A stretch of DNA of 64,000 bases, taken from the sequence record NC_042128.1; one strand, 5' to 3'. The first letter of the stretch is position 1. Each line of letters begins with the position of its first letter. Below are positions 19,880 to 26,367 of the stretch, one piece after another. The notes beneath the pieces were generated by a model that worked only from the letters and a program-made list of their open reading frames with translations, made no database searches and was not told the DNA's origin. A program made the translations under genes and the position numbers. Origin of the DNA: Escherichia phage RCS47.

Positions 19880-20401
19880 TTATTTCTTTTCTGGACAAGT
19901 AGCATTTGGCTGAATTCGAGTTTCATTATCTTTAGTTGAAATAAGCACAGCAAGCCCCGTTGTAAACTGGCATGCTTTACCAACTTGAGTTGAAGTGAAC
20001 ACCTTAGTTCCTTCTTTATAAGTCAGTGAAACACCTTCAACAATTGTTTTATCACTAACCAAAGAACCAGCCGCTGCACCAAGAGCCGCACCACCAGTAC
20101 CGCCAGCTACAGCACCCAGTGTCGATGTGCCTTTAACATTATAACCGGCAACGCCCCCAGCAACAGCTCCCAGTACCGCACCAAATGTCTGTGCCGCTTC
20201 TTTATTAGCTTTATTATCAACTTTCACTTTAGCTGGAAGCACAGAGATAATATTGACTGTCTTTGTTTCCTGCTTCGAATTCAATTGAGCGGTATCATAA
20301 ACATCGGCAGCATAATCAGCACCGCTAGATTGACACCCAGAAAGAAGAATTGCAGATACAACAAGAGCGCATAAAGTATACTTTTTAGACATAAGAATCA
20401 T
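19880..20401 (-). CDS. lipoprotein with glycine-zipper domain
   Basis: 173 aa; lipobox LLSGC; Gly/Ala-rich GxxxG repeats (AVAGGVAG...AVAGGTGGAALGAAAG). Confidence 0.55.
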   Translation of the reverse strand: MILMSKKYTLCALVVSAILLSGCQSSGADYAADVYDTAQLNSKQETKTVNIISVLPAKVKVDNKANKEAAQTFGAVLGAVAGGVAGYNVKGTSTLGAVAGGTGGAALGAAAGSLVSDKTIVEGVSLTYKEGTKVFTSTQVGKACQFTTGLAVLISTKDNETRIQPNATCPEKK

Positions 20402-20682
20402 CCAAGAAAAACAAAAACCGGCGAGAAGTTACCACGAGAACGGAAAGTAAACAAGAATACTCCCATTGACTTATATCAATTAATCAACTTTTTATAAGCA
20501 ACCCCTAACTTATTGTGTATAGCTGAAAAGTCAGAGACAAGTTCACCATCTGCATTATTTCTTAAGTTAATAGTTTATTGCTAACTTAATTTATGTATCG
20601 ACTATTGATATCCATCTTAAAGTAACAATATCCCTCTGCATTATTTTTCATCACAAATAATACTTCTATTGCACGACACTCA

Positions 20683-20699
20683 TCTGCTCTAATAAATTT
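20683..20699 (+). promoter_or_regulatory. C1-repressor operator-like 17-mer (15/17 to recalled consensus ATTGCTCTAATAAATTT)
   Basis: tctgctctaataaattt upstream of the ImmI-like region. Confidence 0.45.
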
Positions 20700-21013
20700 G
20701 TATTTTTAAGTCGTGAATGCTATCTTTTCGCATCATATTGACCTTTTAATCGTTCAGGCTTATAGTTTCGCCGTCGTAGCAAATTCTGCGACCGGGTTTA
20801 GCAGCCTGAATGATTGTGCGGACAGCCGCAGATATCCGATATTGCGGTATTTTTGTGTCCGTAAAACCGCGTTACGCCCAAATTATGGTGGGGCGTGATG
20901 GGGAGGCTTCGGCCTGCTGGTTTCACAATCGCCAGTCTGCTAACCCCGTCACGTCCTGCCACCTGTTTAGCAGCGGGTAGCAGGTTGTTAAACCTGATTG
21001 TGAGGCCGTAACT

Positions 21014-21235
21014 ATGGTTAATGCCAATCCTTGCGCACGCCAAGAATTCATCTGGCGTTTCTATTCCTGTAAAAAACACCACTATCACTTCGTTATCGCA
21101 GCAACAGAAGACGAAGCACGCTCTCAATTGCCTGATGGCCCCTGCATTTTTACTGCCCGTTTTTCAACTAACTCGCGCAATTCACTTAGTTACTGGAGCC
21201 TCCCCTTCTCTGCCGACGTTCAGGGGGGTTTATGA
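21014..21235 (+). CDS. icd: Icd-like small protein translationally coupled to ant
   Basis: 73-aa ORF whose stop overlaps the ant start (ATGA). Confidence 0.45.
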   Translation: MVNANPCARQEFIWRFYSCKKHHYHFVIAATEDEARSQLPDGPCIFTARFSTNSRNSLSYWSLPFSADVQGGL

Positions 21236-22266
21236 AAACACCTCTCGTCACCCGTAATGAAATAGCCGAAGCGATCGCCTTGCATACAATCTGTATGCCG
21301 ACACGGGAGATCCCCGGCGCAATTGCCAACTATTTCATGATAACCAGGCGTTTTTATACCCGAACAGATAAGGCTGTGATCAACAGGCTACTGATAGCCG
21401 AGATCAGGGATTATTTGATTGAACAAGGACGTCTACGTTACGCAACAGTGGCAGCAGAAATGAGAAAGGAGGCACATAGAATGACCGGTAATAATTTAAA
21501 TGTTGAAAAACCAGCACCTGTTGCTTCAGCTACGCCAGCACCAGCCCTGAATGTCATCCCCAACACCGGAGACACAATCGACAGCCAAACATTGTTGAAG
21601 ATGGTCAATGAGGCACGGAAATTATGTAGCGAAAAACCAGTTCGCAACAATGATTTCATTGCCAGAGTTAAGGATGAGCTTGAAGGAGAAACCTACGAAA
21701 TTTTCGTAGGTCAAAAAAACGGCGCAGAAATAGATATTATAACCATGACCTACAAACAAGCCCTGCGAGTTGCCGCGCGCGAGTCAAAAGCGGTCCGCCG
21801 TTCGCTGATCGACAAACTGGAAGAATTACAGCAGGCAAACTCCCCTACCCCATCGATCCCCCAGACATTACCAGAAGCCCTACGCCTGGCTGCCGAGTTA
21901 GCAGAACAGAAAATGCAGTTGGAACAACAGCTGGTGGCCGCAGCCCCTAAAGTCGATTTTGCCGACCGGGTATCAGTGGCCAATGGAATCCTGATCGGGA
22001 ACTTTGCAAAGGTCGTTGGACTTAAGCAAAACGCCCTTTTCTCATGGTTGCGCCAGAATGGCATTCTCATGGCTTTTGGAGCGCGCAAAAACGTACCGCG
22101 CCAACAGTACATCAACGCCGGGTATTTCACGTTGAAAGAAGTGGTGCTGGATGATGAAAATGGCTACCAGATACGGCTGACGCCCCAATTAACGGGTAAA
22201 GGCCAGCAGTGGTTAACTCGCAAGCTACTTGATGCTGGTTTGTTAAAACCAGTAGCAATAGGTTAA
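21232..22266 (+). CDS. ant: antirepressor (Ant) with C-terminal KilA-C domain
   Basis: 344 aa; C-terminal ~130 aa homologous to the C-terminus of the KilA-like protein at 22430-23230; in-frame internal Met (MTGNN...) compatible with Ant1/Ant2. Confidence 0.65.
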   Translation: MKTPLVTRNEIAEAIALHTICMPTREIPGAIANYFMITRRFYTRTDKAVINRLLIAEIRDYLIEQGRLRYATVAAEMRKEAHRMTGNNLNVEKPAPVASATPAPALNVIPNTGDTIDSQTLLKMVNEARKLCSEKPVRNNDFIARVKDELEGETYEIFVGQKNGAEIDIITMTYKQALRVAARESKAVRRSLIDKLEELQQANSPTPSIPQTLPEALRLAAELAEQKMQLEQQLVAAAPKVDFADRVSVANGILIGNFAKVVGLKQNALFSWLRQNGILMAFGARKNVPRQQYINAGYFTLKEVVLDDENGYQIRLTPQLTGKGQQWLTRKLLDAGLLKPVAIG

Positions 22267-22277
22267 CAAAAGAAAAA

Positions 22278-22303
22278 ACCTGCCAGCAAACTGGCAGGTT
22301 TCT
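22278..22303 (+). terminator. rho-independent terminator after ant
   Basis: hairpin aacctgccag-caaa-ctggcaggtt followed by tct. Confidence 0.5.
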
Positions 22304-22343
22304 GAGCAGATCGACCAACCCGATCTGGATCGAGTCAGAAAAA

Positions 22344-22360
22344 TTTGCTCTAATAAATTT
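22344..22360 (+). promoter_or_regulatory. C1 operator-like 17-mer (16/17) upstream of kilA
   Basis: tttgctctaataaattt. Confidence 0.5.
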
Positions 22361-22429
22361 CGTTTTCTAAGTGCAAAGAATCACCATTTCGAGCTGGTGA
22401 TTGAAGGTTGATGCAAATTTGGAGAAAAA

Positions 22430-23230
22430 ATGCAACAAACATTCAATGCGGATATGAATATATCAAACCTTCATCAAAATGTCGATCCTTCAACCACTCT
22501 GCCCGTTATTTGTGGTGTTGAAATTACGACCGACCGCGCTGGCCGTTACAACCTTAATGCTCTACACAGAGCGAGCGGACTCGGTGCCCATAAAGCGCCA
22601 GCTCAATGGCTAAGAACGCTGTCAGCTAAACAGCTCATCGAAGAGCTTGAAAAAGAAACTATGCAGAATTGCATAGTTTCGTTCGAAGGCCGTGGCGGCG
22701 GCACTTTTGCCCATGAATTGCTCGCAGTGGAGTACGCTGGTTGGATTTCTCCCGCGTTTCGGCTGAAGGTAAACCAGACATTTATCGACTATCGAGCCGG
22801 AAGATTACAACCTGCTATTCCGCAGAGTCTCCCTGAAGCTCTCCGTTTGGCTGCCGACCTGGCAGAGCAAAAGCAACGGCTGGAACAAAAAATGCTTATG
22901 GATGCACCTAAAGTCGAATTCGCCGAACGCGTTGCTACCGCCAGCGGGGTTCTAATCGGCAACTATGCCAAAGTGCTCGGTCTGGGCCAAAACTATCTCT
23001 TCACCTGGTTGCGTGATAACGGAATTCTGATCGCAACCGGTGAACGCAGGAACGTCCCCAAACAAGAATACATATCCCGTGGGTATTTCACCCTTAAAGA
23101 AACCGTGATCGATACAAGCAATGGAAGCAGGATTTCTTTCACGACTCGTATAACCGGCAAAGGTCAGCAGTGGCTGATGAAGCGATTGCTTGATACTGGT
23201 GTGCTGGTACCTGTCGCGGCAACGCGCTAA
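22430..23230 (+). CDS. kilA: KilA (KilA-N DNA-binding domain + KilA-C domain)
   Basis: 266 aa; two-domain architecture; C-terminal domain paralogous to Ant C-terminus. Confidence 0.65.
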   Translation: MQQTFNADMNISNLHQNVDPSTTLPVICGVEITTDRAGRYNLNALHRASGLGAHKAPAQWLRTLSAKQLIEELEKETMQNCIVSFEGRGGGTFAHELLAVEYAGWISPAFRLKVNQTFIDYRAGRLQPAIPQSLPEALRLAADLAEQKQRLEQKMLMDAPKVEFAERVATASGVLIGNYAKVLGLGQNYLFTWLRDNGILIATGERRNVPKQEYISRGYFTLKETVIDTSNGSRISFTTRITGKGQQWLMKRLLDTGVLVPVAATR

Positions 23231-23259: not shown

Positions 23260-24105
23260 ATGCTGGCTAAAGTCACTTTCCTGAGCTGTATAACGATGAG
23301 CGATTTTACTTTTTCTGGCTATGAATTGGCCTGCTTTGTAACACACTCCGGTCTATCCCGTAGCGCCGGGCATATCCTGTCGCAATGTGCAAATCTCGCG
23401 GCAACAACCAGTGAATACTTCATTCACAAGCCTCACCGCCTGATCGCGGCAGAAACTGGTTATAGCCAATCAACCGTCGTTCGTGCATTCCGTGAAGCTG
23501 TAAACAAAGGAATCCTGTCTGTAGAGATTGTTATCGGCGATCACCGTGAACGTCGCGCTAACCTGTACCGGTTTACACCATCCTTTTTGGCCTTCGCACA
23601 ACAAGCCAAAAATGCGCTGATTGAAAGCAAATTAAAGATCTCTTCAGCGGCAACCAAGGTTAAAGCTGTTCTCGCTAAGACATTGGCTTTATTTAATTTT
23701 TTATCCACATCCCCATGTCAAAATGATACCCCCTCCCCCTGTCAGGATGACGTGGCAATAAAGAATAAGAAGTCACAAGTTAAAAAAACAAAAAGATCAG
23801 TTTCCGACGGTGCCGGAACGTCCAGACTCAAAAAATTGACTTCGTGGATCGCTGAGGCAAAAGCAAAAGCTGACAATCTGCGGTTATCCAAAAAACGCGC
23901 TCAAAAACATGAGTTCAAGCAGAAAGTAGAGGCGGCAGCGCGGAAATATGCTTACCTGAAGAACAAGCGTTCTCCTGATATTGGCGGGATATCAAACTTC
24001 GATAATCTGCCGCATTGCATGACGGTAAACGAAGCTCTTAATGCGGTTTTAGCCAAAAATAAAGATAACGAACAATGGGGTATACCGGCAGGATTCAGAG
24101 GGTGA
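23260..24105 (+). CDS. repL: RepL-like lytic replication initiator
   Basis: 281 aa, immediately downstream of kilA in one operon. Confidence 0.5.
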   Translation: MLAKVTFLSCITMSDFTFSGYELACFVTHSGLSRSAGHILSQCANLAATTSEYFIHKPHRLIAAETGYSQSTVVRAFREAVNKGILSVEIVIGDHRERRANLYRFTPSFLAFAQQAKNALIESKLKISSAATKVKAVLAKTLALFNFLSTSPCQNDTPSPCQDDVAIKNKKSQVKKTKRSVSDGAGTSRLKKLTSWIAEAKAKADNLRLSKKRAQKHEFKQKVEAAARKYAYLKNKRSPDIGGISNFDNLPHCMTVNEALNAVLAKNKDNEQWGIPAGFRG

Positions 24106-25560: not shown

Positions 25561-25770
25561 TTTCTATAGAAAAAAAGCCAGACATTGATACACCCGCTGC
25601 GGTGTGCTTGAGGCTATCTGCTTCAGGCATTCCCCGAAAAGCAGATAGAAGAAAGCCCCAGTAAACATTATGCGTCCCGCACAACGCTTAACATTAACCG
25701 GGGCCATACCTATGCTTAGCGTGCTTAGATTAATCCTCTCCTCTGTCAAGGAGCAAGGAATTTTTTACTG

Positions 25771-26367
25771 CTATGCCGCCTTTCCAGTTATGGATTCAGC
25801 GACCAGAACAACCCCATGCTTACTTCGATCTGGGTGTTCACTCCATATCTCGGATTCAGGAATACTTACCCCGTCATAGCAAACACGTTCGCCGTCAAAC
25901 GGGTAATACTGAGCGGCATCGGTGTCGAGGATAAACACTTTTAGCTCGGAAGAGCGACGGGCGATATGTTGCCAAAGAGCTTTTCCACCTTCGTATTGCT
26001 CATTATCACTGAGCAAAACAACACCAGCTTTTGAGGCTACGGTTTCGTAAACAAAAGTAGCTAAACCGACATCCCGGACAGTTCCATCAACCACGATACC
26101 TTCAATCTGGGCAACATCGCTATCCTCCCAGAACTTCCTTACCAGTACGCCTTCAAGCTGCGGGCGACGTTGAAGTTCAAGAGTAGCGACAACCTTATGC
26201 CGCATATCACCATCGATAACAGAAGGCGCAGCCTCTATTACAGCTGCAAATGGGGTTTTGGAATCCCATATAACCTGGTAAAGCACACCCTGGATGGTAA
26301 CTCCGTCCAGGATCGAAAATCGACGAGCGACAGTACCCGGGGAGTACGACATTGGAATCACAGCCAT
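25771..26367 (-). CDS. hypothetical protein (pmgF-like by position)
   Basis: 198 aa from internal Met with AAGGGGGA RBS. Confidence 0.4.
   Translation of the reverse strand: MAVIPMSYSPGTVARRFSILDGVTIQGVLYQVIWDSKTPFAAVIEAAPSVIDGDMRHKVVATLELQRRPQLEGVLVRKFWEDSDVAQIEGIVVDGTVRDVGLATFVYETVASKAGVVLLSDNEQYEGGKALWQHIARRSSELKVFILDTDAAQYYPFDGERVCYDGVSIPESEIWSEHPDRSKHGVVLVAESITGKAA

Follow-up and report, generated by a model that had tools for sequence, protein, structure and literature searches.

The segment 20683–22266 on the + strand of Escherichia phage RCS47 (NC_042128.1) is almost certainly the ImmI (secondary immunity) operon of a P1/P7-like phage-plasmid (Punavirus), with the immunity specificity of phage P7. 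The stretch analysed, referred to below as the window, comprises 64 000 nucleotides of this record, and all positions are counted from its first letter. The P7-type reading was computed here from the order of the elements, identity to P7, RNA family membership, predicted fold, complementarity and covariation. Nothing in the sequence contradicts it, and all sequence-level features of a P1/P7 ImmI operon were found in the window. By analogy with the literature on P1 and P7, the locus would also share their RNA processing, translational block, termination and binding of Ant to C1. The operon belongs to a system that has been fully characterised and is not a variant of that system; it is already known, real but ordinary.

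A preliminary description of this DNA had called the locus ‘ImmI-like’. This was right in substance but incomplete, the locus being ImmI of P7 specificity itself. The a elements that it listed were found again, but it had missed the location of c4, the b′, b1 and b2 elements, the C1 operator, the promoters and the internal start of Ant2.

Similarity of the locus to P1-like phages

When positions 20400–22400 were compared with phage records by megablast, identities of 98.8% to Escherichia phage phi456 and 96.0% to phage P7 were obtained over the full 2 kb, and of 93.5% to phage P1 from the operator onward. The matches to P7 and P1 cover their annotated c4, icd, ant1, ant2 and C1 operators. It was also observed that the 24 kb around the locus is 96–99% identical to P1-like phages (Punavirus, Salmonella phage SJ46), and 781 plasmid records were found to contain similar DNA; of these, 714 are from Escherichia. 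Therefore, the window belongs to a P1/P7-like phage-plasmid.

The curated annotation of P1 and P7 was moved to the window via a three-way alignment (window, P7, P1). The gene order is colinear with that annotated for P7 and P1: C1 operator, P51a/P51b, a1 b1, c4, a2 b2, icd, ant1/ant2, and then Op53-kilA-repL (Table 1). A second, RNA-based layer of immunity like that of P1 had been proposed earlier, and this is supported, since the annotated c4-icd-ant1/ant2 segments of P7 and P1 can be matched to the region base by base.

Table 1. Features of the ImmI operon and its downstream neighbours in the window.
Feature	Position	Strand	Basis and remarks
C1 repressor operator (Op51 / Oc4) TCTGCTCTAATAAATTT	20683–20699	+	Aligned with and identical to the annotated P7 Op(c4)
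Promoter P51a (P2c4)	20697–20726 (−35 at 20697–20703; −10 TATCTT at 20721–20726)	+	P1 annotation via alignment; operator overlaps
Promoter P51b (P1c4), TTGACC-17-TATAGT	20738–20766	+	Promoter scan, 10/12 matches
a1 leader site TTAGCAG (P7 type)	20798–20804	+	Complementary to a′ of c4; within the RF03163 match; equivalent P1 site annotated
b1 leader site GATTGTG (P7 type)	20812–20818	+	Complementary to b′ of c4; inverted repeat; equivalent P1 site annotated
c4 antisense RNA gene, 77 nt	20887–20963	+	Rfam and P7/P1 annotation agree; identical to P7 c4
b′ TCACAATC	20923–20930	+	Within c4, hairpin loop
a′ CTGCTAA	20937–20943	+	Within c4, single-stranded joint
a2 target site TTAGCAG, icd-ant mRNA	20967–20973	+	Inverted repeat; equivalent P1 site annotated
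b2 target site GATTGTGA	20996–21003	+	Inverted repeat, 8/8 complementary to b′; equivalent P1 site annotated
icd, 73 aa, cell-division inhibitor and ant1 coupling ORF	21014–21235	+	ORF list; identity to P7/P1 Icd; NF033153
ant1, 344 aa, antirepressor	21232–22266	+	ORF list; start overlaps icd stop
ant2, 261 aa, in-frame internal start in ant1	21481–22266	+	Aligns with annotated P7 and P1 ant2 starts
GC-rich hairpin	22274–22303	unassigned	Terminator scan call on − strand, 13 pairs; directly after ant stop codon
Next C1 operator	22344–22360		Downstream of ImmI operon
kilA	22430–23230		Downstream of ImmI operon
repL	23260–24105		Downstream of ImmI operon

The c4 RNA and its leader

The whole 64-kb window was scanned against Rfam at gathering thresholds. 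The C4 antisense RNA family (RF01695) gave a full-length model match at 20881–20966 (+), scoring 69.6 bits against a gathering threshold of 45 (E 1.7e-11). The c4-a1b1 leader (RF03163) was matched at 20760–20812 with 54.6 bits against 46.7 (E 5e-11). The preliminary description had taken the complementary elements upstream of the 73-aa ORF as compatible with a c4-type antisense RNA and its targets; both above-threshold matches, together with the compensatory covariation described below, bear this out. It had also suggested alignment to the P1/P7 c4 RNA as a check, and in that alignment the 77-nt c4 is identical to that of P7.

The predicted fold of c4 is a long closing stem around two hairpins, with an energy of −44.9 kcal/mol (z −5.7); none of 200 shuffled sequences was as stable, and the minimum free energy and centroid structures coincide. 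Both recognition segments stay unpaired in this fold, b′ within a hairpin loop of 9 nt and a′ within a single-stranded joint of 7 nt.

A repeat of the Rfam scan showed a resemblance of 20773–20854, the part of the c4 leader that carries a1/b1, to the isrK family (RF01394; 43.7 bits, E 1.3e-7). Membership in this family was rejected, the score being below the gathering threshold of 50; in the window, this segment forms the leader at the 5′ end of the c4 precursor transcript. Sub-threshold matches to ctRNA_p42d and mir-1231 were dismissed as noise. Elsewhere in the window the scan at gathering thresholds found a sok RNA and three tRNAs.

Recognition elements

A mechanical repeat search found an exact 10-nt direct repeat, GTTTAGCAGC, at 20796 and 20965, which contains the a element. 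A second set, TGATTGTG[C/A]GG, occurs at 20811 and 20995, and its exact 8-nt complement TCACAATC lies in the c4 loop. All three of the short elements named in the preliminary description are present. The first, GGTTTAGCAGCC, had been placed 9 nt off, as it is found at 20795 and not at about 20786, while TGTTTAGCAGC is at 20964 and CTGCTAACC at 20937. The b2 element overlaps the icd Shine–Dalgarno sequence GAGG (21002–21005). For a1/b1 the role is putative; the P1 annotation, too, lists it as such.

Complementarity of the a elements is contiguous over 7 nt only (CTGCTAA at 20937–20943 against TTAGCAG at 20798–20804 and 20967–20973). The 7-mer TTAGCAG was found at three further + strand sites of the 64-kb window, and its complement at three sites besides a′. 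Taken alone, this 7-nt complementarity is at chance level.

Covariation of the recognition elements in relatives

The elements were compared in 88 loci, comprising the window and 87 further loci, of which 3 came from genomes, 80 from viral contigs, and the others from the records of P7, P1, D6 and phi456. The viral-contig set consists of the best 80 loci, all with Icd at least 96% identical, and the scan of genome contigs with Icd alignment gave 3 loci, its patterns being too specific. Two a-types and five b-types were found in the 88 loci, in eight cognate combinations plus one locus with a mismatched b2. In each locus the a-type is the same across a1, a′ and a2, and the b-type across b1, b′ and b2, with a single exception (locus L013), in which b2 has no match to its own c4. 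The type of the window, with both a and b as in P7, forms the commonest group among the loci. Two ImmI modules that differ in b type occur, as assembled, on a single viral contig of 97 kb (IMGVR_UViG_2703718869_000013).

Pair counts were made on an alignment of 20 distinct sequences. For the internal helices of c4 together with a′/a2 and b′/b2, 99.9% of the cells were in standard pairs and 8 pairs had changed on both sides; for a1/a′ together with b1/b′ the corresponding figures were 100% and, again, 8 pairs. When the partners were slid by 1–3 columns as controls, 25–53% of the cells were paired, with double changes of 0 or 1. Considered separately, a′/a2 was paired throughout (100%; 2 pairs changed on both sides) and b′/b2 in 99.4% (6 of its 8 pairs changed on both sides). 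Likewise, a1/a′ was 100% paired, with compensatory changes, and 6 of the 7 pairs of b1/b′ had changed on both sides. The preliminary description had made its RNA reading depend in part on complementarity being conserved in relatives, and this is what was found, at 99.9–100% pairing in the 20 distinct sequences.

The covariation reflects a few reassorted alleles and not many independent substitutions, because the loci are close relatives plus D6; the matching at three sites for each element is nevertheless unambiguous.

These counts also bear on the alternative that the complementary elements are a product of chance and that ant is controlled purely by C1 at the operator, with no RNA regulator. 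The shortness of the contiguous complementarity (7–8 nt), and the roughly random rate at which TTAGCAG and its complement recur elsewhere in the window, would fit such an arrangement. However, it would leave the Rfam E values of about 1e-11, a c4 stem far more stable than its shuffles, and the near-perfect covariation of a and b in 20 distinct sequences from 88 loci, set against 25–53% in the slid controls, without an explanation. We regard it as having practically no chance of being correct. The chance reading of the short repeats was rejected on the Rfam scores and the covariation. The elements stand above chance because of the 10-nt direct repeat, the b set, the Rfam matches above gathering and the compensatory changes.

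With respect to the wider set of loci, a tentative and rather doubtful extension is that a and b form a modular recognition code with at least eight cognate combinations. This could mean that there are many more heteroimmunity groups than those of P1 and P7, and recombinants with mismatched elements, L013 being an example, could be derepressed in nature. No paper describing the full a × b repertoire was found in the literature searched, which did not include the key D6 and P1 genome papers, and the repertoire may already be published. It could help to predict the coexistence or exclusion of P1-like plasmids, many of which carry resistance genes.

Specificity of the P7 type

When window, P7 and P1 are aligned, c4 and the six recognition elements of the window prove base-for-base identical to those of P7. 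P1 departs from the window and P7 precisely in the a and b elements, where each change is matched by one in the partner. The a sites and a′ read TTAGCAG and CTGCTAA in the window and P7, but TTGACAG and CTGTCAA in P1. The b sites and b′ read GATTGTG and CACAATC in the window and P7, but GTTAGTG and CACTAAC in P1. Each a element and each b element thus has 2 positions that differ between window and P1. The predicted energy of the cognate b′/b2 duplex is −10.0 kcal/mol, compared with −5.0 and −4.7 kcal/mol for the P1/P7 cross-pairs. Hence, from the P7-identical elements and these duplex energies, the ImmI specificity is of the P7 type. Small differences in ImmI underlie the heteroimmunity of P1 and P7 (PMC6906374).

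An ImmI operon of P1 specificity, or of a new one, was also considered. The flanks of the locus are mosaic relative to P1, P7 and SJ46, and several other a/b combinations exist among the relatives, which would favour a different type. But a1, b1, a′, b′, a2 and b2 all have the P7 sequence, and the specificity positions set them apart from P1; the cross-pair of b′ with the P1 target is predicted to be weak (−5.0 vs −10.0 kcal/mol). A specificity other than that of P7 is therefore extremely improbable. P1-type specificity in particular was rejected, as the alignment has P7 bases at the specificity positions. Under the P7-type reading, lysogens would be ImmI-immune to superinfecting phages of the P7 type and not to those of the P1 type.

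icd, ant1 and ant2

The 73-aa ORF, which had been described as an icd-like coupling ORF overlapping the start of a 344-aa ORF, was confirmed in the ORF list, and the icd stop and the ant1 start share the sequence ATGA at 21232–21235. Its product shares 98.6% of its residues with the Icd of P7 and 95.9% with that of P1. It also matches the NCBIfam model NF033153 (phage_ICD_like) with 52.3 bits against a cut-off of 25; no Pfam model matched Icd. The assignment of this ORF as icd is upheld by the P7 identity and the NF033153 match.

The KilA-C domain that had been ascribed to the 344-aa ORF is indeed present (Pfam PF03374, KilAC; aa 231–333, E 2.6e-30). Ant1 is 93.1% identical to its P7 counterpart and 90.5% to that of P1. 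Compared with P7 it has a 4-aa deletion and a divergent patch of ~20 aa, at about aa 150–172, and the 344-aa form is common to 12 of the 88 loci. The ATG of ant2 (21481) is preceded by AGGAGG, positions 21470–21483 reading aggaggcacatagaATG, and Ant2 is 92.1% identical to that of P7.

Operator, promoters and flanking genes

The C1 operator consensus was matched 9 times in the 64-kb window, compared with 0.32 matches expected, and the operator at 20683–20699 is among the 9. The sequence of P51a shows no change among the window, P7 and P1; a promoter consensus scan gave no independent call for it. P51b coincides in the alignment with the annotated P1 promoter P1c4, and does not lie under the operator. 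The hairpin at 22274–22303 is a probable terminator at the end of the operon. On the + strand, for which this function would have to hold, the stem is followed by TTTCT only.

The flanking genes are as in P7, with homologues of upf50.5 and upf50.0 upstream and kilA and repL downstream. KilA is 99.6% identical to that of P7 and 99.2% to that of P1. A TnpB-type ORF (IS element) lies directly downstream of repL.

Using the P7 proteins as tblastn queries, we found neither c1 nor coi within the 64-kb window. Therefore, the primary repressor gene lies outside it. Some P1-like plasmids have modified or deleted ImmI regions (PMC6906374), and the module could accordingly be imagined as an inactive remnant on a defective phage-plasmid, with no immunity function; the missing c1 and coi and the IS element next to repL would agree with this. 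However, only about two thirds of a P1/P7-like genome is included in the window, so the absence of c1 says little. Moreover, the ORFs are all intact, c4 and the six recognition elements are identical to those of the functional P7, the promoters and the operator are conserved, and the neighbouring structural genes, kilA and repL are intact and 97–99% identical to phage records. A remnant is thus very unlikely, and an intact ImmI operon of the P7 type is the preferred reading. Its exact coordinates are useful for annotation, as c4 and even icd are unannotated in many deposited records (e.g., phi456 and SJ46).

Proposed mechanism of control

In work of the Schuster laboratory, c4 is reportedly released from the operon transcript by RNase P. 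The a′ and b′ elements of c4 are said to pair with a2 and b2, by which the icd ribosome-binding site is blocked, and the untranslated icd RNA reportedly terminates early, so that ant is neither transcribed nor translated. Processing of the P7 c4 is said to have been reported by Citron & Schuster in 1992 and by Hartmann et al. in 1995. Given its identity to P7 c4, the RCS47 c4 would likewise be excised by RNase P as a 77-nt RNA.

The control at the RCS47 locus would then run as follows. A single transcript would start from P51a, which C1 would repress through the overlapping operator, and from P51b, which would be independent of C1. It would carry, in order, the a1/b1 leader, c4, a2/b2, icd and ant1/ant2. 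Once the 77-nt c4 RNA had been cut out (by RNase P, as in P1/P7), its unpaired b′ and a′ would pair with b2 and a2 on the same kind of transcript, and translation of icd would be blocked because b2 overlaps the icd ribosome-binding site. Expression of ant1 is expected to depend on translation of icd through the ATGA coupling. The untranslated icd RNA would be prematurely terminated, no Ant1/Ant2 antirepressor would be made, and C1 would stay active. If the control by c4 failed, or if a heteroimmune phage with non-matching a/b elements entered, Icd and Ant1/Ant2 would be produced and lytic growth would follow. Icd would act as a division inhibitor that targets FtsZ, and Ant1/Ant2 would bind and inactivate C1. 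The ATGA overlap and the overlap of b2 with the Shine–Dalgarno sequence are the sequence basis of this c4-icd-ant scheme.

Background for several of these steps is available. C1 represses the c4-icd-ant operon, and full repression needs the C4 antisense RNA, as stated in a passage of PMC8198154 that cites Citron & Schuster 1990 and Riedel et al. 1993. Ant1/Ant2 bind C1 (PMC8198154), and FtsZ is the target of Icd (PMC11897509). For RCS47, homology (93.1% identity to P7 Ant1, and the KilAC domain) suggests that Ant1/Ant2 bind and inactivate C1 in the same manner.

Comparison with known systems

The immI region of phage P22 is an analogy only. There, the sar antisense RNA limits synthesis of the ant antirepressor, which inactivates the primary repressor. 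The components are unrelated to those of the window: sar is a true cis-antisense transcript, and the proteins Mnt and Arc are involved. P22 immI is also not known to have an icd coupling ORF, nor is its RNA known to be co-transcribed with the target and then processed out.

The leader of the window resembles the model of the Salmonella IsrK sRNA (RF01394, Gifsy-1 prophage) over 20773–20854, though below gathering.

The c4-icd module of phage D6 (MF356679) is closer. It has a c4-like RNA, with a1/b1 and with a2/b2 upstream of an icd homologue, and shares 86% DNA identity with the window over c4 and the leader. D6 Icd, however, is only 48.6% identical to that of the window, and the antirepressor encoded downstream of it is a Roi-like protein (235 aa) with no relation to Ant1. 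In D6 the b elements are of the ACTTACG specificity, and the module adjoins repL at a different genome position.

In the P1 ImmI operon (AF234172, 48140–49731), the architecture is the same and the mechanism presumably so, and the DNA is 93.5% identical to the window from the operator onward. Upstream, P1 has simABC where the window has the upf50.5 and upf50.0 homologues. The specificity elements of P1 and the window differ by compensatory changes, which are the classical basis of P1/P7 heteroimmunity.

The P7 ImmI operon (GenBank AF503408, 50853–52448) has the same neighbours as that of the window, with upf50.5 and upf50.0 upstream and kilA-repL downstream. In the operator-distal upstream region a few substitutions separate the two, a further one lies just after the −10 box of P51b, and the Ant1 of P7 has 348 aa compared with 344 aa in the window, where the patch at about aa 150–172 is divergent. 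The order of the elements is the same in both, and c4 and the six recognition elements are identical.

Modular recognition elements of c4

When the ImmI locus of the window (20795-21006) was compared with the 87 loci of relatives (L001-L087), it was observed that the c4 recognition elements of these 88 P1-like loci are modular. Two types of a (TTAGCAG and TTGACAG) and five types of b (GATTGTG, GTTAGTG, ACTTACG, ACGAATG, and ACTTGTG) occur, and they are joined in eight cognate a/b combinations. Judged from the sequences, this modularity suggests that there are heteroimmunity groups beyond those of P1 and P7.

At a single locus, L013 (IMGVR_UViG_2565956613_000015, 3-242), b1/b' are of the ACGAATG/CATTCGT type while b2 is of the P1 type, GTTAGTG. 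Since these types differ, the b' loop of its c4 is mismatched to the ribosome-binding site of its own icd, and the locus may have arisen by recombination, in which case its ant may be derepressed. Two complete c4-icd-ant modules (L016 and L072) were found on one 97-kb viral contig, IMGVR_UViG_2703718869_000013. They have one a type in common, but their b types differ (ACTTGTG and GTTAGTG). The pair reflects either a genuine duplication or an assembly in which two co-resident P1-like plasmids were wrongly joined.

The c4 leader, the region after a2, and Ant1

The c4 leader, with a1 and b1, matched isrK (RF01394), the Rfam model of a Salmonella Hfq-binding sRNA, below the gathering threshold (43.7 bits against 50; E 1.3e-7). 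The match begins about 7 nt past the -10 box of P51b, i.e., at the expected transcript start.

A GTAGCAG sequence lies 4 nt 3' of a2 and, like a2, can pair with a' of the P7 type, here over 6 bp and with a predicted pairing energy of -8.5 kcal/mol. P1 and P7 both carry this sequence. As the D6 type and that of another relative, L012, lack it, this site is probably incidental.

Compared with P7 and P1, Ant1 of the window shows a deletion of 4 aa and, at about residues 150-172, a divergent patch that follows the N-terminal part and precedes the KilAC domain. Its length of 344 aa is common to 12 of the 88 loci.

Other features of the window

Features located in the window
Feature	Position	Strand	Evidence or remark
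upf50.0 and upf50.5 homologues of P7	19337-20401	-	upstream of ImmI
c4 leader, sub-threshold isrK match	20773-20854	+	RF01394
GTAGCAG	20977-20983	+	after a2
Ant1 ORF	21232-22266	+	
TnpB/OrfB_IS605-type ORF, 391 aa	24257-25432	+	Pfam PF07282, PF01385, PF12323
sok antitoxin RNA	25602-25775	+	Rfam RF01794, 68.5 bits (gathering 59)
Seven further C1-operator-like 17-mers	38982, 43527, 43538, 53958, 57582, 57631, 59723		C1 operator consensus matches
Three tRNA genes	44210-44282, 44288-44360, 46364-46436	+	Rfam scan of window

Including those at ImmI and kilA, nine C1-operator-like 17-mers occur in the 64-kb window against 0.32 expected; the second and third of the further sites form a divergent overlapping pair. 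The TnpB-type ORF lies directly 3' of repL, a position occupied in P1 by rlfA/rlfB. The sok match implies a putative hok/sok-type addiction module adjoining the IS element. P1-family phages carry tRNA genes, and the three genes in the window would fit such a phage.

Upstream of ImmI, P1 has the superimmunity genes simABC, whereas the window has homologues of P7 upf50.0 and upf50.5 in their place. The former encodes a secreted DUF5384 protein and the latter a lipoprotein whose TraT-like match is weak and falls under the Pfam cut-off.
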